Shown here one piece after another: positions 10,322-49,028 of a stretch of 64,000 nt of DNA. The stretch lies in NCBI GenBank assembly GCA_022788085.1, contig JALEWA010000066.1:6465-70464 (forward strand), given 5' to 3'. Below the pieces are notes generated by a model. It was given only the letters and a program-made list of their open reading frames with translations, did no database searches and had not been told where the DNA came from. The stretch comes from Lachnospiraceae bacterium. Its GTDB lineage: Bacteria; Bacillota; Clostridia; Lachnospirales; Lachnospiraceae. Position 1 is the stretch's first letter, and every line of letters starts with the position of its first letter. Both the position numbers and the translations under genes were made by a program.

Positions 10322-11719
10322 ATGAAGACAAAAAACGGACATAAGACATACCCATTAACTAAGGCACAGAAGTTTCATATTTTCTATAGTGAGTACTGCC
10401 CTAAGAAAGAGGTATTGAACATAGGAACAAGCCTTACCATTGCCTATGAGCTTGACCTTGAAGTTTTAAAGCAGTCTGTTTACAAGGCTTACGAACGTTG
10501 TGAATCGATGCGTGTACGCTTTACATATGATAAAAAAGAGGAACAGTGGTATCAGTATGTGGCAGACAAAGAGGAACGTGACATTGAATATGTAGACTTC
10601 ACGGAAAAGACAATGGAGGAAGCAGAGCAGATTATGACGCAGTGGACGCGTGTACCTTTCCCACGTGAGGATTCCCCGATGAACCGTGTAGTCATGATTA
10701 AAACTCCTGATGGAAACCAGGGACTTTATCTTCTGGGCGACCATATGCTGATCGATGCGCAGTCACTGATCCAGTTTTTAAGAGATGTGATTGAATTATA
10801 CTGTAATGCGAAGTTTGAAAATGTTCCTTATCCGGCTGACATGCGTTCTTATGTGGAACAGCTTGAAAAGGATCTGGCATATGAAGCAGGCAGCAAGGCA
10901 CAGCAGCGTGACAGAGAGTATTTCCATAAGCTGATTGAAAAGTCAGAACCTGTTTTTAACGGAGTGGAAGGAACAAGACAGCTCGAGGAAGCAAGAAAGA
11001 AGGTACCGGGTACCAGGGCAGCCTTTTCCGCATCAACGAATGTAGATTCTACGATTGATGTATTTCATCTGGAAGAAGAGCCGACACAACGTCTTATGAA
11101 ATTCTGTGAGGAGAATCATATTTCCTTACAGTGCCTGCTGATTATGGGAATCCGTACTTATTTCCAGAAAATGAACGGAAATGATGACGTGTCTTTCAAT
11201 GTGGCTTATGCAAGACGTGCTACTCTTTTGGAGAAAAAGTCGGGTGGAACAAGAATCCATTCTTTACCATTTAGAACGGTTATATCTGAGGATCAAACTT
11301 TCATGGAAGGAATTCATCAGATTCGGGACGGACAGAATGAGGTTTTCCGTTATACTAACTTTGACCCGGTGGAATATTTCACATACAGAAGCAAATATTA
11401 TTCCACTCCAAGAGGTGCTACATATGAACCTTTGTCCATAACATACCAGCCAATGACTCTGAAGGAAAAAGGACTGAATATGCTGGGTGATATCAAGTAT
11501 AAGACAAAATGGTACTCAAACGGAGCGTGTACACATGCTATGTATCTGACGGTTATGCATCGCCCGGACGATAATGGACTTGATTTTAGCTTTGAGCATC
11601 AGCTCGCAGCTTTCAGCAAGGAACAGCTGGAGTATTTTTATTACTATATTTGCAGAATTATGTTCAAGGGTATAGAAACACCTAATCTTAAAATAGGGGA
11701 TATTATTAAACTAATCTGA
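10322..11719 (+). CDS. Stand-alone NRPS-type condensation domain protein
   Basis: YPLTKAQ N-terminus, active-site variant DHMLIDA (HHxxxDG), and typical C-domain length. Confidence 0.85.
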   Translation: MKTKNGHKTYPLTKAQKFHIFYSEYCPKKEVLNIGTSLTIAYELDLEVLKQSVYKAYERCESMRVRFTYDKKEEQWYQYVADKEERDIEYVDFTEKTMEEAEQIMTQWTRVPFPREDSPMNRVVMIKTPDGNQGLYLLGDHMLIDAQSLIQFLRDVIELYCNAKFENVPYPADMRSYVEQLEKDLAYEAGSKAQQRDREYFHKLIEKSEPVFNGVEGTRQLEEARKKVPGTRAAFSASTNVDSTIDVFHLEEEPTQRLMKFCEENHISLQCLLIMGIRTYFQKMNGNDDVSFNVAYARRATLLEKKSGGTRIHSLPFRTVISEDQTFMEGIHQIRDGQNEVFRYTNFDPVEYFTYRSKYYSTPRGATYEPLSITYQPMTLKEKGLNMLGDIKYKTKWYSNGACTHAMYLTVMHRPDDNGLDFSFEHQLAAFSKEQLEYFYYYICRIMFKGIETPNLKIGDIIKLI

Positions 11720-11799
11720 TGAAATGAGACAATTTGCAGGTTTCATAAATGTATAAAATTCAGTGATATTTGTAATTCATGAAAGGGAGGATTGTAATT

Positions 11800-12024
11800 A
11801 TGTTTGAAAAATTAGCAGAGATCATCACAAATTATGTGGAAGTAAAGAAAGAGGATATTAAACCGGAGTCACGTTTTATGGAGGATTTAGGTTTTACTTC
11901 TTTTGATTTCATGAGCATGCTCGGTGAAATTGAGGATGAACTTGATGTGGAAATCGATGCAGGGAAGGCAGCAGATATCCGCACAGTACAGGAAGCAGTC
12001 GATTATCTGGAACAGTTACAGTAA
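11800..12024 (+). CDS. Acyl/peptidyl carrier protein
   Basis: DLGFTSFD phosphopantetheine Ser motif. ATG at 11800 after SD AGGGAGG. Confidence 0.9.
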   Translation: MFEKLAEIITNYVEVKKEDIKPESRFMEDLGFTSFDFMSMLGEIEDELDVEIDAGKAADIRTVQEAVDYLEQLQ

Positions 12025-12048
12025 AGATAGCAAAGAGGGAGGGTTATT

Positions 12049-13587
12049 ATGAACGAGTTAAGAAGCACCATACGTGAAATTCTGGTGGCAGCCGAGCAGG
12101 AATTTGGTGGACAGGACGCTTTTCGCTACAAGGTGAAGGGCAATGAGGACGGCGGAAAGAAAGAAGTAAAGGTTGAAAGCAAGTCCTATACACAGTTGAG
12201 GAAGGACAGTGAGGCGTTCTCAGCAGCTTTGGCAGGACTTGGAGAACAGGGAAAGCATATAGCTGTTCTTGGAACAACCTCCTATTCCTGGATTGTTACT
12301 TACTTCGGTGTTGTAAACAGCGGAAGTGTGGCAGTACCTCTTGATGCAAACCTTCCGGCAGAGGATTTATGTGAGCTGATTGACCGTGCAGATGTGACAA
12401 CGTTTGTATATGATGAGACAAAAGAAGCAGTAGCTGCCATGGCAGCAGAGAAATGCAGCGGATTAAAGAATATCATTTGCATGGGTGATGGTAAGGATGA
12501 TACAAAGGTACTTTCTCTTTGGAAGTTGATTGAAGAACAGAGCACAGGCTTTGATTATCAGCCACAGCCTGACCAGCTTGCAACCATCATGTTTACATCC
12601 GGTACGACAGGAAAAAGCAAGGGCGTTATGCTGACACACAGAAATCTTGCAGAGAATGCAACCTGTCTTGATATGGGATTTGAGCAGGGAACAGTTCTTA
12701 TGTCGGTGCTTCCGATTCACCATGCATATTGTCTAAGCAATGATATTTTAAAGGCTCTATCCCTCGGTTCCGTAATCTGTATTAATGACTCGCTTCTTCG
12801 TGTAGCAAAGAATATCAAGCTGTTTGAACCGAATATGATTCTGATGGTGCCATTGATGATAGAAACACTTGCCAAAAAGCTTGAAGAGGCTGCATGGATA
12901 CCGGCACCACTTGTAAAAGCAAAAGTATTTGGAAAGCAGTTCCGTACCATAGTCAGTGGTGGAGCTTACTTAAATCCGGCATATATAGATATGTTCAGGA
13001 AGTATGGAATCGAAATCCTGCAGGGCTATGGAATGACAGAATGCTCACCTGTTATCAGTACCAATATAAGCTCTAATACAAAGCCGGGTTCTGTTGGAAA
13101 GCTGATGCCAAACTGTGAAGCTAAGGTAGTTGACGAAGAACTATGGGTAAAAGGTTCAAGTGTTATGCAGGGATACTACAAGATGCCAAAGGAAACAGAG
13201 GAAACGCTGTGTGACGGTTGGTTAAAGACCGGTGACTTGGGATATGTAGATGAGGATGGTTTCGTATTCCTGACCGGACGTAAGAAGAATCTGATTATCA
13301 CCCCAAATGGAGAGAATGTTTCTCCTGAGGAGATTGAGAATAAGCTTGGCGAGAATCGTCTGGTTCAGGAGGTCCTTGTCCGTGAAGCAGACGGCGTCAT
13401 TGAGGCAGAAATCTTCCCAGATTATGAATATGCCACTAAGAAGAAAATCAAGGATATTCAGAGCGAACTGCAAAAACAGATTGACGCCTACAATAAGACG
13501 GCACCACTTTATAAGAGAGTACTCAAACTGAAAGTGCGTGAGGTGGAATTCGAGAAGAATACTACGAAGAAAATTAAACGCTTTTAA
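12049..13587 (+). CDS. AMP-binding adenylation enzyme (fatty acyl-CoA/ACP ligase type)
   Basis: MFTSGTTGKSKG, QGYGMTECSP, LKTGDLG, GRKKNLII motifs. Confidence 0.92.
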   Translation: MNELRSTIREILVAAEQEFGGQDAFRYKVKGNEDGGKKEVKVESKSYTQLRKDSEAFSAALAGLGEQGKHIAVLGTTSYSWIVTYFGVVNSGSVAVPLDANLPAEDLCELIDRADVTTFVYDETKEAVAAMAAEKCSGLKNIICMGDGKDDTKVLSLWKLIEEQSTGFDYQPQPDQLATIMFTSGTTGKSKGVMLTHRNLAENATCLDMGFEQGTVLMSVLPIHHAYCLSNDILKALSLGSVICINDSLLRVAKNIKLFEPNMILMVPLMIETLAKKLEEAAWIPAPLVKAKVFGKQFRTIVSGGAYLNPAYIDMFRKYGIEILQGYGMTECSPVISTNISSNTKPGSVGKLMPNCEAKVVDEELWVKGSSVMQGYYKMPKETEETLCDGWLKTGDLGYVDEDGFVFLTGRKKNLIITPNGENVSPEEIENKLGENRLVQEVLVREADGVIEAEIFPDYEYATKKKIKDIQSELQKQIDAYNKTAPLYKRVLKLKVREVEFEKNTTKKIKRF

Positions 13588-13614: not shown

Positions 13615-13643
13615 TTGACATCTCACTGACACGTTACTATAAT
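13615..13643 (+). promoter_or_regulatory. Consensus SigA promoter of the T-box/por operon
   Basis: TTGACA (13615-13620), 17 bp, TATAAT (13638-13643). Confidence 0.85.
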
Positions 13644-13701
13644 AAAGTTTAATTGAATAAAGTTATCAATAACACATTATAAAAATGATGTGTGGTATGA
13701 A

Positions 13702-13941
13702 AGACGATGATGGAGACAGTACTTATATCTGGAAAGTCACAGAGAGCCGCGAGAAGCTGAGAAGCGGTACGAGTAAGGGCATAGGGAATATCCCTCCTGA
13801 GTTGCAACGCAAAAGTTCGAAATGCTCGGATGAGTAGACGTTGTCGGCTTCCTCCCGTGAAAGAGGACGCATATGTTGGTATGTCGTAGATGGTTTTTGT
13901 GAAGATATTAGACTTCTGCCGTTTGCGGCAGAAGTTTTTTT
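13702..13941 (+). ncRNA. T-box-like leader RNA (probable Ile AUC specifier; antiterminator degenerate)
   Basis: GA-motif GATGA; GGAG/CTCC stem; AGTA (13718)/GAA (13786) loop-E; AGAGAG box (13741) and GCTGAGA loop; stem II CAACG/CGTTG with AGTA; TCCTC-CCGTGAAA-GAGGA (F-box-like); TGGT at 13891; terminator ACTTCTGCCG/CGGCAGAAGT plus poly-T. Confidence 0.72.
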
Positions 13942-13975
13942 ATTTCATAATATTAGGAAGGACATGGTGAATAAC

Positions 13976-14548
13976 ATGAACAAAACAGTGGAAATCAGAT
14001 GGCATGGTCGTGGTGGTCAGGGCGCAAAAACAGCAGCCCTTCTTCTTGCAGATGTAGCATTCAAGACAGGAAAGTACGTACAGGGCTTCCCAGAGTACGG
14101 TCCTGAGAGAATGGGTGCACCGATTACAGCATACAACCGTATTAGTGACCAGCCTATTACGGTACATTCCAATATTTATGAGCCTGATTATGTAGTTGTT
14201 GTAGATGAAAGTCTTTTAGAGACTATCGATGTAACAAAGGGACTGAAGGAAAATGGTGCTGTTATCATTAATTCCGAGCGCTCCAAGGAAGAGCTTAGAA
14301 GCCTTCTTCATGGATATAAGGGAGAGGTTTATACCGTAAATGCAAAGCAGATTTCCCTTCGTGCATTAGGCAAGAACTATCCGAATTCCCCAATGCTTGC
14401 TGCAGCAGTAGCAGTTTCCCATGTCATGGAAAGAAAAGATTTCTTAAAGGAAATGAGGGCTTCCTTCCAGCATAAGTTTGCTAAGAAGCCGGAAGTAATC
14501 GATGGAAATATGATGGCATTAGAGCTGGCTTTCGAAGAAGCCTGCTGA
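13976..14548 (+). CDS. porC: 2-oxoacid:ferredoxin oxidoreductase gamma subunit
   Basis: EIRWHGRGGQGAKT, FPEYGPERMGAP. The real start is 13976; the track's upstream extension overlaps the leader RNA. Confidence 0.9.
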   Translation: MNKTVEIRWHGRGGQGAKTAALLLADVAFKTGKYVQGFPEYGPERMGAPITAYNRISDQPITVHSNIYEPDYVVVVDESLLETIDVTKGLKENGAVIINSERSKEELRSLLHGYKGEVYTVNAKQISLRALGKNYPNSPMLAAAVAVSHVMERKDFLKEMRASFQHKFAKKPEVIDGNMMALELAFEEAC

Positions 14549-14585
14549 TACCTATACATTTATACAGAAAGGTACATATAGTAAA

Positions 14586-14882
14586 ATGATACAAGATAGA
14601 ATTAACGAGAGAAGTCCATGGCAGGATATAACGGAAGGAAATAAGATTTACGAGCCTGCTACATCCAAAGAATTCTGTACAGGAGAGTGGAGAACGCAGA
14701 CCCCAATCTTTGACAAGGAGAAGTGCAAGCAGTGTCTTCTTTGTGCACCGGTATGTCCTGACTGTTCCATTCCTGTTGTAAATAGTGAGAGACAGGAATT
14801 TGACTTAGACCACTGCAAGGGCTGTGGAATCTGCGCAAAGGTTTGTCCTTTTGGTGCAATTACCATGAAGGAGGGTAAATAA
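14586..14882 (+). CDS. porD: 2-oxoacid:ferredoxin oxidoreductase delta subunit (2x[4Fe-4S])
   Basis: TGEWRTQTP, CKQCLLCAPVCP and CKGCGICAKVCP. Confidence 0.9.
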   Translation: MIQDRINERSPWQDITEGNKIYEPATSKEFCTGEWRTQTPIFDKEKCKQCLLCAPVCPDCSIPVVNSERQEFDLDHCKGCGICAKVCPFGAITMKEGK

Positions 14883-14965
14883 CAAGCTCTAAAGAGAGCT
14901 TGTTATTAGCAAATTTGTACCTGCGGTCCAAATATTGCAGGTAAGAGAAAGGTTTGGTTATAAAA

Positions 14966-16153
14966 ATGGCTATCAGAGAACGTTTATCAGGAAATGAGGC
15001 AGTCGCATACGCAATTAAACAGATTAATCCTGATGTTATGCCTGCATTCCCTATTACACCATCAACAGAAATCCCACAGTATGTGGCAACCTATATTGCA
15101 AATGGTGAAATCGATACAGAATTCATTCATGTAGAGAGTGAACATAGTGCAATGAGTGCGACCATTGGCGCATCCGCAGCAGGTGCAAGAGCATTAACTG
15201 CAACATCTTCCTGTGGTATGGCACTGATGTGGGAAGAACTCTATGTGGCAGCTTCCGACAGACTTCCTATTGTACTTGCACTTGTTAACAGAGCATTGAC
15301 TGGACCCATCAATATTAACGCTGACCACTCCGACAGTATGGGTGCCAGAGATACCGGATGGATTCAGATTTATGCAGAGTCTAATCAGGAGGTATATGAT
15401 AACTTCTTACAGGCATTCCCAATTGCAGAACATAAAGATGTCATGCTCCCTGTTATGATTTGTCAGGATGGATTTATCACAAGCCATGGTGTTGAAAATA
15501 TTCTTCTTGTAGAGGATGAACTTGCAAAAGAGTTTGTTGGTGAATATGAACCGGAGCATTATCTTTTGAATGCAAAAGAACCCATGGCAGTTGGACCATA
15601 TGCTGTTTCCAATTACTATATGGAAACAAAGCGTGCACAAAGAGAAGCTATGTTGAATGCCAAGAAAGTAATCCTTGAAATCGCAGAGAAATTTGAGAAG
15701 ATGACAGGAAGAAAGTATGGCTTCTTTGAGGAATACAGAATGGATGATGCAGAATATGCAGTTGTTATTATTGGTTCTGCAGCAGGAACCTGTAAAGCTG
15801 CCATTGAGAAGATACGTAAAGAGACAGGCAAGAAGGTTGGCTTGATTAAGATTCGTGTATTCCGTCCGTTCCCGGAGGAAGAGATTGCCAAGGCACTATC
15901 AAAGGTAAAGGCAATTGCAATTATGGATCGTTCTGAAATGTTTTCCGCAACAAGCGGCCCTCTTGGTGCAGAGGTAAGAGCTGCATTGTTCCAGGCTAAG
16001 TCACAGGCAGAGGTAGTTAATTATTTCTATGGCCTTGGTGGACGAGATATTACAGTAGACGATTTCGAAGAGATATATAAGAATCTGGAAGAGATGGCAG
16101 AGACTCATGTTGTGAAAGACATGTACAAATACATTGGATTGAGGGAAAGATAA
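14966..16153 (+). CDS. porA: 2-oxoacid:ferredoxin oxidoreductase alpha subunit
   Basis: SGNEAVA, FPITPSTE, ESEHSAMS, TATSSCG. Confidence 0.92.
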   Translation: MAIRERLSGNEAVAYAIKQINPDVMPAFPITPSTEIPQYVATYIANGEIDTEFIHVESEHSAMSATIGASAAGARALTATSSCGMALMWEELYVAASDRLPIVLALVNRALTGPININADHSDSMGARDTGWIQIYAESNQEVYDNFLQAFPIAEHKDVMLPVMICQDGFITSHGVENILLVEDELAKEFVGEYEPEHYLLNAKEPMAVGPYAVSNYYMETKRAQREAMLNAKKVILEIAEKFEKMTGRKYGFFEEYRMDDAEYAVVIIGSAAGTCKAAIEKIRKETGKKVGLIKIRVFRPFPEEEIAKALSKVKAIAIMDRSEMFSATSGPLGAEVRAALFQAKSQAEVVNYFYGLGGRDITVDDFEEIYKNLEEMAETHVVKDMYKYIGLRER

Positions 16154-17088
16154 TGGAAACAGCATATAATTTTAAAGAAGTAATGAATAAACCGGAGCGG
16201 CTTGCACCGGGACACAGAATGTGTGCAGGCTGTGGTGGTACGATTGCAGTTCGAACTGTTTTAAGAGCGCTGCATGAGGGAGATAAGGCGGTTATTGGTA
16301 ATGCAACAGGCTGTTTGGAGGTATCTTCCTTCATGTATCCTTATACCGCTTACGAGGACAGCTATATCCATAATGCCTTTGAAAATGCAGGTGCTACACT
16401 GTCTGGTGTGGAAACCGCATATAATGTATTAAAGAAGAAGGGCAAGATTAAGGATAACTATAAGTTCATTACCTTCGGTGGAGATGGTGGAACCTATGAT
16501 ATTGGCTTCCAGTCCTTATCAGGAGCCATGGAGCGTGGTCATGACTTAGTGTATGTCTGCTATGATAATGGTGCTTATATGAATACGGGAACACAGCGTT
16601 CCTCAGCAACACCTCATTTTGCAGATACGACAACAACACCTGCCGGAAAGGTTTCTAATGGTAAGGTACAGGTAAGAAAGGATCTTGCTGCTATTATTGC
16701 AGAGCATCATGTTCCATATGTGGGACAGACAACCTATATTGGCAATTTTAAAGATATCTATACAAAGGCGGAGAAGGCGATTTATACACCGGGTCCGGCA
16801 TTCTTAAATGTAATGTCTCCATGCCCAAGAGGCTGGGGCTATGAGCCGTCAGAGTTGATGAACATATGCAAGCTGGCTGTAGAGACCTGTTATTGGCCTT
16901 TGTTCGAGGTTGTTGATGGTAAATGGATTTTAAGCTATGCACCTAAGAATAAGCTTCCAATCGAGGAGTTCCTTCGTCCTCAGAGACGATTCAGGCATTT
17001 GTTCAAAAAAGGTAATGAAGACATGATCGTAGCATTTCAGGATGAAATTGATAAGAGATGGGAAGAACTTCGTAATCGTTGTGAATAG
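16153..17088 (+). CDS. porB: 2-oxoacid:ferredoxin oxidoreductase beta subunit (TPP-binding)
   Basis: GHRMCAGC, GGDGGTYDIG TPP motif, YMNTGTQRS, SPCP. Confidence 0.92.
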   Translation: METAYNFKEVMNKPERLAPGHRMCAGCGGTIAVRTVLRALHEGDKAVIGNATGCLEVSSFMYPYTAYEDSYIHNAFENAGATLSGVETAYNVLKKKGKIKDNYKFITFGGDGGTYDIGFQSLSGAMERGHDLVYVCYDNGAYMNTGTQRSSATPHFADTTTTPAGKVSNGKVQVRKDLAAIIAEHHVPYVGQTTYIGNFKDIYTKAEKAIYTPGPAFLNVMSPCPRGWGYEPSELMNICKLAVETCYWPLFEVVDGKWILSYAPKNKLPIEEFLRPQRRFRHLFKKGNEDMIVAFQDEIDKRWEELRNRCE

Positions 17089-17124: not shown

Positions 17125-17679
17125 TTATGTATGGGCTTCCATGGCTTTTTTTACGGCTTCGATTTCAGCAGCCTTTCGTTCTTCATCTTCCTTTGCCTCA
17201 CGTAAAAGTCTTTCATAGATGGCGTTAGCTTCCCGGATAATTTCATCCTGTTCCGGTGGAAGTACTACATCGGATGTTGATTCTTTATCCCCTTTTGATG
17301 TCTGTTCAGAAGAGTTTTGAAGAATTGCATCAATAGAGTTCTGGGAGCTGGAAATACTCATGATCTGATCCAGCATAGATTGCGTATCATCATCCATGGG
17401 ACCTTTGCCATATAATCCGGAATAGGAACCGGTTGTTTCATTATATGCCTCATCCTCAATGGGCTGCTGTGCATCTTCCTGTGGCGGAGCTTCCTTTGCT
17501 TTGGCTTCTTCGATAGCAGCAAGCTCTTCCTCTTCCTTTTTACGGGCTTCTTCCTCCTCTTTCTTGGAAGGCCATATTTTCTTTGCATCGGGATTATAGA
17601 TTACAAACCACCACTTGATGATATTTCGATAGAATTTCTTAAAAAAATAAGCAGTGTTTGGGTCCATCATAAGTATCAT
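17125..17679 (-). CDS. Hypothetical acidic/coiled-coil protein
   Basis: 184-aa ORF with a plausible SD (GAAAGG); aromatic N-terminus and Glu/Lys-rich body. Confidence 0.6.
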   Translation of the reverse strand: MILMMDPNTAYFFKKFYRNIIKWWFVIYNPDAKKIWPSKKEEEEARKKEEEELAAIEEAKAKEAPPQEDAQQPIEDEAYNETTGSYSGLYGKGPMDDDTQSMLDQIMSISSSQNSIDAILQNSSEQTSKGDKESTSDVVLPPEQDEIIREANAIYERLLREAKEDEERKAAEIEAVKKAMEAHT

Positions 17680-48005: not shown

Positions 48006-49028
48006 ATGGAAAAGAAGAATATGGACTGGTCAACTCTTGGCTTCGGTTATCATCAGACAGAGAAGAGATATGTTACAAATTATAAGAACGGAGCATGGGA
48101 TGAAGGTGTCATTACAGAGGACGCTAACATTGTATTAAATGAGTGTGCAGGCGTGTTACAGTATGCACAGACATGTTTTGAAGGATTAAAGGCATATACA
48201 ACTGAAGATGGACGTACCGTAGTATTCCGTCCTGATCTGAATGCACAGCGTATGTATGACAGCTGTAAGAGACTTGAGATGCCTACCTTACCGGAAGGAC
48301 GTTTTGTAGAGGCTGTTAAGGCAGTTGTTAAGGCAAATGAAGCATATGTTCCACCATTTGGTTCAGGGGCAACTTTATATCTCCGTCCTTATATGTTTGG
48401 AACGAATCCTGTTATTGGTGTAAAGCCTGCTGAAGAATATCAGTTCAGAATCTTTGCTACACCTGTTGGACCATATTTCAAGGGTGGCGCAAAGCCTATT
48501 ACAATCTGTGTCAGCGATTTTGACCGTGCGGCACCACATGGTACAGGTCATATCAAGGCTGGATTAAACTACGCAATGAGCTTACATGCCATTGTGACAG
48601 CACATGCAAACGGATTTGACGAGAATATGTATCTTGATCCGGCAACAAGAACAAAGGTTGAGGAAACAGGTGGTGCAAACTTCCTGTTCGTAACAAAGGA
48701 CAACAAGGTAGTAACTCCGAAGTCTAATAGTATCTTACCTTCCATTACACGTCGTTCTTTGATGGTTGTTGCGAAAGAATATCTTGGATTAGAGGTAGAG
48801 GAAAGAGAAGTTCTTTTTGAAGAAGTTAAAGATTTTGCAGAATGTGGTCTTTGTGGTACAGCAGCAGTTATTTCCCCTGTTGGAAAGATTGTTGACCATG
48901 GCAAGGAAATCTGCCTGCCAAGCGGTATGGATGAAATGGGACCTGTAACGAAGAAGCTTTATGATACTTTAACAGGTATCCAGATGGGACGTATCAAGGC
49001 TCCTGAAGGATGGGTTGTTGAGATTTAA
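48006..49028 (+). CDS. ilvE: Branched-chain amino acid aminotransferase
   Basis: LQYAQTCFEGLKAY, LYLRPY, IKAGLNY (PLP Lys), EETGGAN, ILPSITR, CGTAAVISP. Confidence 0.95.
   Translation: MEKKNMDWSTLGFGYHQTEKRYVTNYKNGAWDEGVITEDANIVLNECAGVLQYAQTCFEGLKAYTTEDGRTVVFRPDLNAQRMYDSCKRLEMPTLPEGRFVEAVKAVVKANEAYVPPFGSGATLYLRPYMFGTNPVIGVKPAEEYQFRIFATPVGPYFKGGAKPITICVSDFDRAAPHGTGHIKAGLNYAMSLHAIVTAHANGFDENMYLDPATRTKVEETGGANFLFVTKDNKVVTPKSNSILPSITRRSLMVVAKEYLGLEVEEREVLFEEVKDFAECGLCGTAAVISPVGKIVDHGKEICLPSGMDEMGPVTKKLYDTLTGIQMGRIKAPEGWVVEI

Follow-up and report, generated by a model that had tools for sequence, protein, structure and literature searches.

A predicted isoleucine T-box leader upstream of a four-subunit 2-oxoacid:ferredoxin oxidoreductase operon in Lachnospiraceae

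Organization of the porCDAB locus

A stretch of 64,000 nucleotides from contig JALEWA010000066.1 of a gut Lachnospiraceae bacterium, referred to here as the window, contains a promoter, an RNA leader and four genes, porC, porD, porA and porB, which follow one another on the forward strand. The sigma-70 promoter (13615-13643) consists of the -35 element TTGACA (13615-13620), a 17-nt spacer and the -10 element TATAAT (13638-13643); it agrees with the consensus at 12 of 12 positions, as a preliminary description of this DNA had indicated, and is the top-scoring site of a 4-kb region. Between the promoter and porC lie about 300 nt of leader with a terminator at its end. Its sequence identifies this leader as an isoleucine-specific T-box, and the combination of such a leader with a POR-type operon was confirmed in more than 50 species. 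For the arrangement as a whole we propose, as an evenly balanced reading, that the leader is a transcription-attenuating tRNA-Ile(GAU) T-box which arose by duplication of an ileS T-box and gates porCDAB, and that the enzyme made under isoleucine limitation likely forms 2-oxobutyrate. Within this proposal, the wiring of the operon to report on tRNA-Ile is well supported, and an anabolic role of the enzyme appears plausible.

The gene porC (13976-14548) encodes a gamma subunit of 190 amino acids (TIGR02175, 211.6 bits, cut-off 81; PF01558), and porD (14586-14882) encodes a delta subunit of 98 amino acids, a ferredoxin with two [4Fe-4S] clusters (TIGR02179, 89.6 bits, cut-off 60; Fer4). The open reading frame (ORF) of the alpha subunit gene porA opens at a TTG at 14954 and ends at 16153; translation probably begins at the ATG at 14966 (MAIRERL...), the start shared by orthologs, which align from residue 5. 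Its product matches PorA_Arch with 504 bits (cut-off 550) and contains POR_N and PFOR_II. The beta subunit gene porB (16153-17088) encodes a thiamine pyrophosphate (TPP)-binding protein of 311 amino acids (PRK11865, 353 bits, cut-off 405; TPP_enzyme_C). The domains that define a four-subunit 2-oxoacid:ferredoxin oxidoreductase (OFOR), namely POR, Fer4, POR_N with PFOR_II, and TPP_enzyme_C, are encoded together at 13976-17088, which bears out the porCDAB-type genes described earlier behind the leader.

The T-box leader and its specifier

The 5' part of the leader contains the elements of a T-box. Stem I (13704-13802) has a GA/K-turn base, the specifier loop AGUA...GAA, an AGAGA bulge and the distal loop GCUGAGA; it was delimited by covariance-model alignment and by covariation in its helices 1-5, and both AGAGA and GCUGAGA are invariant among homologous leaders. 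It is followed by Stem II (13805-13843; helices 6-7), in which 8 of the 10 pairs show changes on both sides, and by the Stem IIA/B pseudoknot (13845-13867). In the latter, helix IIA (CGG/CCG) is invariant, and helix IIB, formed by UCCUC (13850-13854) with GAGGA (13863-13867), is 97.8% paired with both-side changes in four of its five pairs.

These values come from an alignment of 55 leaders. PorA orthologs (at least 82% identical) were gathered from 80 species genomes and combined with 20 loci that carry an exact copy of a 31-nt block of the 3' domain; nhmmer then yielded 54 distinct homologous leaders upstream of orthologous operons, 67-86% identical to the window leader. On this alignment, Stem I, Stem II, IIA/B and the terminator were paired in 95.7% of cases, compared with 37-51% for slid controls, and both-side changes were found in 28 pairs. 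The 54 homologous leaders and their covariation indicate that the por leader is a real and constrained T-box homologue.

An Infernal search with RF00230, the check proposed in the preliminary description, matched positions 13698-13874 with 59.6 bits (E 1.3e-12; permissive filters, 441-nt stretch), and the alignment covers Stem I, the specifier loop, Stem II and IIA/B, the model's own 3' part being skipped. The match exists, but its score lies under the Rfam gathering score of 93. For the same reason a default Rfam scan of the whole window gave no T-box match, a tRNA being the single RNA match at the gathering threshold. The por leader is also the weakest of the 14 T-box matches in the genome. 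However, scores are similarly low for eight orthologous por leaders (59.5-77.4 bits) and, in other Lachnospiraceae genera, for bona fide ileS leaders (53-83 bits); the low Rfam score is a trait of the whole family. As a separate observation, the gathering score misses every isoleucine T-box tested among the Lachnospiraceae ileS leaders L154-L178, and standard annotation therefore under-reports T-boxes in Lachnospiraceae.

The specifier codon AUC (Ile) lies at 13790-13792, preceded by GAA (13786-13788) and U (13789) and followed by C (13793). This reading, GAA-U-AUC-C, had been given in the preliminary description and was upheld by the alignment: AUC is invariant in 55 of 55 leaders, and all four bases occur on its 5' side (U 22 times, A 20, C 8 and G 5). 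The ileS leader of the same genome (contig C226) is 78% identical across Stem I and uses the same register, GAA-U-AUC-A; the specifier loop reads GGGAAUAUCACUCC in the ileS leader and GGGAAUAUCCCUCC in the por leader. A tRNA-Ile with anticodon GAU and discriminator A73 was found in two genomes of the same genus, and a search of the metagenome-assembled genome (MAG) itself did not recover tRNA-Ile(GAU). Counting against an isoleucine T-box of the usual kind is the base 3' of the codon, which is C in 53 and A in 2 of the 55 leaders in place of the usual conserved purine.

The codon UAU (Tyr), readable in the window one base 5' of AUC at 13789-13791, had been offered earlier as an alternative specifier, in which case the operon would respond to tyrosine. 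In this frame, the aligned leaders read UAU in just 22 cases, AAU in 20, CAU in 8 and GAU in 5, and the ileS paralogue uses the AUC register as well. The free variation of the base before AUC rules out the UAU frame, and we assign practically no weight to a tyrosine-responsive operon.

Two further observations concern T-boxes and leader structure in this genome. A perfect 9-bp hairpin, ACACAUUAU-AAAA-AUGAUGUGU, is located at 13672-13693, 3' of the predicted transcription start and ahead of Stem I, in a part of the leader that is not conserved among relatives. Elsewhere, a T-box of 97 bits was found upstream of a gene for a CstA-like membrane protein (contig C85:12365-12630, L006).

A 3' domain lacking the canonical UGGN bulge

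Downstream of the pseudoknot, the consensus fold contains a short Stem III hairpin, CGCAUA / UAUG-U-CG (13868-13886), with the loop UGGU (13877-13880). The 5' strand of the antiterminator, UCGUAGAUGG (13884-13893), pairs with a 3' strand, CCGUUUGCGG (13919-13928), that spans the loop of the intrinsic terminator and the uppermost part of both its arms. The terminator (13910-13946) consists of a 12-bp stem (13910-13937) with a U run behind it, and seven of the eight pairs of its lower stem covary. The T-box leader with a terminator that had been noticed earlier is thus present, with its elements located and covarying among homologs; the non-canonical character of the 3' discriminator domain had escaped that description.

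This domain is highly conserved. In the leader alignment, the block CGCAUAUG-N-UGGUAUGUCGU and the terminator loop CCGUUURCGG are nearly invariant; GUUU.CG is invariant in all leaders and kept even where the loop has a 4-nt insert, and the 31-nt block is identical in 20 species genomes. The insert occurs in the por leaders L102, L103, L105 and L065 as an extra ACGG or GCGG in the terminator loop, with CCGUUUACG intact.

The helix between 13884-13893 and 13919-13928 is paired in 99.8% of cells, compared with 38-51% in slid controls, and shows one compensatory pair, GC to AU, in four sequences. An unbiased alifold consensus recovered this helix for a transcript ending before the 3' arm of the terminator and replaced it with the terminator when this arm was included. 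The window RNA behaved in the same way: short of the 3' arm it folds into the antiterminator helix at -13.2 kcal/mol, the lowest-energy fold until that arm is transcribed, and at full length the terminator reaches -22.1 kcal/mol compared with -20.4 kcal/mol when the antiterminator is forced. In a swap test with por, ilvA and ileS leaders, cognate pairs of strand and terminator gave -9.2 kcal/mol and non-cognate pairs -7.6 kcal/mol; a value as low as that of the cognate pairs came up in 96 of 50,000 permutations. Pairing, folds and swap test together describe a mutually exclusive antiterminator and intrinsic terminator, as is characteristic of T-boxes.

A covariance model of the 3' domain gave matches in 98 of 301 Lachnospiraceae genera, and the top 30 loci were inspected. 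In canonical ileS and trpS leaders, the motif CGCAUAUG-NNN-GUAUG-YCG forms Stem III, where it covaries, and is followed on its 3' side by the normal T-box sequence AGGUGGUA. The por antiterminator helix corresponds to helix A1 of these canonical leaders, for example GUAAAUGG/CCUUUUAC in L161, in which A1 is followed by the bulge UGGUUAU and by the A2 helix ACGA/UCGU. Weighing against a functional T-box of the textbook type, the canonical 7-nt UGGN bulge between A1 and A2 was not found in the por leaders; the region between their A1 strands is a bulge of 2-7 nt with no fixed sequence.

The closest known system is the transcriptional isoleucine T-box of ileS (RF00230), represented by the genome's own ileS leader. 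Besides the similar Stem I and the common register GAA-N-AUC, the two leaders have in common Stem II, the IIA/B pseudoknot, the Stem III hairpin motif, an intrinsic terminator and a helix extending into the terminator loop. They differ in that the por leader lacks the UGGN bulge and the ACGA/UCGU A2 helix, carries C instead of A after the codon, and precedes an oxidoreductase rather than a tRNA synthetase.

Leaders without the UGGN bulge and A2 were grouped as class B; one ilvA leader and eight ileS leaders belong to it together with every por leader. Covariation is seen in the A1-like helix of this class (CGUGAUUGA/UCAAUUGCG in L155, CGUGAUA/UAUCGCG in L159, CGUAAU/AUUACG in L154). Class B leaders lie directly upstream of ileS in at least eight other genera and, since ileS is essential, the design must be functional there and permit regulated read-through. 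The ilvA member (L156, G310:C21:199873-199961, minus strand), from another genus, is an isoleucine T-box with the register GAA-A-AUC-A directly upstream of a gene for the 2-oxobutyrate-forming threonine ammonia-lyase (428 bits). In addition, a por-type leader with AUC-C and the same 3' domain (L151, G257:C5:38347-38428) was observed before an ORF for a nucleoside-phosphorylase-like protein of 254 amino acids, not before por.

The loop of Stem III may provide the missing contact. Its UGGU (13877-13880) is complementary to the tRNA 3' end ACCA and is kept in 53 of the 54 aligned por leaders and in five of five from other genera; it also occurs in a trpS leader, while just about 14 of 24 ileS leaders carry UGGU at this place. 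We regard it as the best candidate for a docking site of the tRNA 3' end. Two other assignments were set aside. In one, GCAUAUG (13869-13875) would act as A1 by pairing with the 3' arm of the terminator, with UGGUAUG as the 7-nt bulge; this pairing is 98.5% complete in close relatives and fails in the distant por leaders L152, L153 and L162, and the model was downgraded because of these breaks and because the motif corresponds to the canonical Stem III hairpin. In the other, a second UGGU (13891-13894) would be the T-box sequence, but its fourth position is not fixed (A in 26 leaders, G in 18, U in 6), and a UGA that covaries with the terminator occurs in four sequences.

It is also possible, in a broader and more tentative hypothesis that we consider less likely than not, that Lachnospiraceae contain a T-box class without the UGGN bulge which regulates ileS, ilvA and porCDAB and senses the tRNA 3' end through the Stem III UGGU or by some means other than NCCA-UGGN, and whose por member governs a natural 2-oxobutyrate synthase gated by isoleucine demand. 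The T-box database TBDB lists just 48 sequences without a recognisable UGGN (PMC7778990). If such a class before ileS, ilvA and por is real, it would be a new T-box variant. The missing bulge in leaders of the essential ileS calls into question the universality of the textbook charge-sensing contact.

The missing bulge, the C after the codon and the Rfam score under the cut-off could also be signs of decay, the leader having lost its ability to sense tRNA charging and now attenuating constitutively or answering to another factor. Decay is hard to reconcile with a 3' domain so extremely conserved, with covariation in all helices and with an AUC that never changes among neighbours that do; moreover, the same design precedes the essential ileS in several genera, and the canonical ileS leaders of the family likewise score under the cut-off. 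We therefore consider a decayed leader very improbable.

Genomic context and possible metabolic role

The gamma and delta subunits pass their subfamily cut-offs, and no subunit reaches a substrate-specific equivalog cut-off: the pyruvate synthase equivalogs NF040682 (PorA) and NF008819 (PorB) gave 504 bits against 550 and 353 bits against 405. POR models scored above VOR models for both large subunits (PorA_Arch 504 and VorA 346 bits; PorB 353 and Vor-beta 284 bits), and by these scores the enzyme is POR-like and not VOR-like. The closest solved structure is the four-subunit pyruvate:ferredoxin oxidoreductase (PFOR) of Methanosarcina acetivorans (PDB 9BT4; PorCDAB/PorABDG type), with 320 bits for porA against 9BT4_B and 282 bits for porB against 9BT4_C. 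Both enzymes have the same four subunits and domains and the motifs PITP, NRA and PINI; the window enzyme differs in that its subunits lie under all NCBIfam equivalog cut-offs and in that its operon is preceded by an isoleucine sensor.

These comparisons bear on the substrate. The preliminary description put reductive carboxylation of 2-methylbutyryl-CoA first and named propionyl-CoA as the other option; the first reaction would give 2-oxo-3-methylvalerate, which IlvE would transaminate to isoleucine. A route from 2-methylbutyrate to isoleucine has long been known from labelling in rumen and gut anaerobes, the leader is specific for isoleucine, and ilvE is in the genome. However, the POR-like scores and pocket motifs matching those of PFOR make 2-methylbutyryl-CoA a less likely substrate, and an acyl-CoA synthetase or ilvE is linked to por in none of about 50 loci. 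We consider this route rather unlikely. The favoured option is formation of 2-oxobutyrate from propionyl-CoA, ranked first on account of the POR-like character of the enzyme and of the lack of an acyl-CoA synthetase or ilvE linked to its operon. The proposed completion of the pathway by ilvE fared in a mixed way: the gene is present at 48006-49028 (462 bits), but it lies 31 kb from the por operon, is unlinked to it and has its own leader.

The same preliminary description held that the enzyme may not be a catabolic pyruvate oxidoreductase. On one side, pyruvate formate-lyase (PFL) scored above its threshold in 24 of the 31 genomes examined in the genus, with matches in 13 of 13 high-quality genomes, so that pyruvate breakdown can be covered without por. 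Together with the sister leader on ilvA and the acceptance of 2-oxobutyrate by PORs, this fits an enzyme that is not simply catabolic. On the other side, por may simply be an ordinary PFOR, catabolic or working as a pyruvate synthase, with the isoleucine T-box as a general nutritional signal, comparable to the use of isoleucine by CodY. Several observations weigh in that direction and against the proposed anabolic role. PorCDAB is single-copy in the genome, no nifJ-type PFOR was found in this genome or in the 31 genomes of the genus, 27 of which have a PorA-like gene, and PorA is 82-96% identical across species; the conservation of the operon matches that of a housekeeping enzyme, and the nearest solved structure is a genuine PFOR. 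In about 25 species the orthologous operon lacks a leader and lies 20-90 nt downstream of an unrelated gene (guaB or one of two unknown ORFs), the contexts behind guaB being of a housekeeping kind; these leaderless orthologs are 82-87% identical. On the PorA tree, one clean clade of 23 species is leaderless. The genome also encodes IlvA (449 bits), and a second source of 2-oxobutyrate is therefore not strictly needed. Finally, no CoA ligase, CoA transferase or aminotransferase gene was found to be conserved beside the T-box-por unit among the roughly 50 loci.

Against an ordinary PFOR stands the known repertoire of T-boxes, which control synthetase, biosynthesis and transport genes of the cognate amino acid (PMC2494555, PMC3766115). 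It would be odd for the main pyruvate enzyme to be shut off when isoleucine is plentiful; PFL is widespread in the genus, and sister leaders are found on ileS and ilvA. Overall, we judge a housekeeping PFOR under a general signal to be unlikely, yet deserving of serious attention.

The distribution of the leader is not random. On the PorA tree, its presence is clustered (11 changes, compared with 26 for shuffled labels), and in the closest relative (L030) the leader lies between porC and the unknown ORF that precedes leaderless orthologs. T-boxes farther upstream of the leaderless orthologs were looked for and none were found. Relatives of the window MAG are labelled Acetatifactor or Roseburia. 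Among them, the cultured Acetatifactor muris DSM 23669 carries the leader-por element, which makes the claim directly testable.

In the reading that we prefer, an ileS T-box would have been duplicated to give a leader gating a self-contained porCDAB operon. When isoleucine is short, uncharged tRNA-Ile would bind Stem I through codon-anticodon and elbow contacts and stabilise the antiterminator, and RNA polymerase would read into porCDAB. Under such limitation, the enzyme would most likely run in the synthase direction, converting propionyl-CoA, CO2 and reduced ferredoxin to 2-oxobutyrate, which IlvBNCD and IlvE of the genome could carry on to isoleucine; ilvD, for example, was detected with 786 bits. 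With 2-oxobutyrate as substrate, four-subunit PORs reach 30-54% of their rate with pyruvate (PMC13768988, Table 1), and an engineered propionate-to-isoleucine route in E. coli employs the nifJ PFOR of Moorella as 2-oxobutyrate synthase (PMC12879463). The chemistry proposed here is identical to that step, and the isoleucine sensor points to a candidate natural gene for it.

No report of a T-box controlling an oxoacid:ferredoxin oxidoreductase was found in text searches or in the surveys Wels 2008, Sun 2013 and TBDB 2020; Vitreschak 2008 and Gutierrez-Preciado 2009 fell outside this coverage, and a prior mention there is possible. Likewise, the 2-oxobutyrate synthase activity is known biochemically, and no natural gene or regulator for this role turned up in the literature searched. 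T-box specifiers are among the most reliable clues to function that can be drawn from sequence alone, and an isoleucine switch on a POR-type enzyme suggests a candidate gene for ferredoxin-dependent synthesis of isoleucine precursors from short-chain acids. The gut is rich in propionate and branched acids, and such a route would tie fermentation products and CO2 to amino acid supply.

Some features of the genus and of the neighbourhood of por were also recorded. The absence of single-chain nifJ-type PFOR from the 31 genomes of the genus is unusual for Lachnospiraceae, and all high-quality genomes of the genus combine PFL with a four-subunit Por. A second, distant OFOR (26-36% identity) is encoded at contig C72:926-4341 (L131) by a fused gamma-delta protein of 396 amino acids and an alpha-beta protein of 741 amino acids; it has ATP-binding cassette (ABC) transporter genes before it and a rubrerythrin gene after it, and the fused type occurs in about half of the genomes of the genus. 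Upstream of por, a nonribosomal peptide synthetase (NRPS)-like set (10322-13587) encodes a stand-alone condensation-domain protein, an acyl carrier protein and an AMP-binding adenylating enzyme. The set ends 28 nt 5' of the por promoter and is not conserved beside por in relatives. Its AMP-ligase gene (12049-13587) was considered as a por-linked gene and rejected, as it belongs to the NRPS-like cluster and is not conserved beside por. Downstream, an ORF of 184 amino acids on the minus strand (17125-17679), with no family match, is convergent with porB; L030 and L031, the two closest relatives, have homologs of it at the same place.

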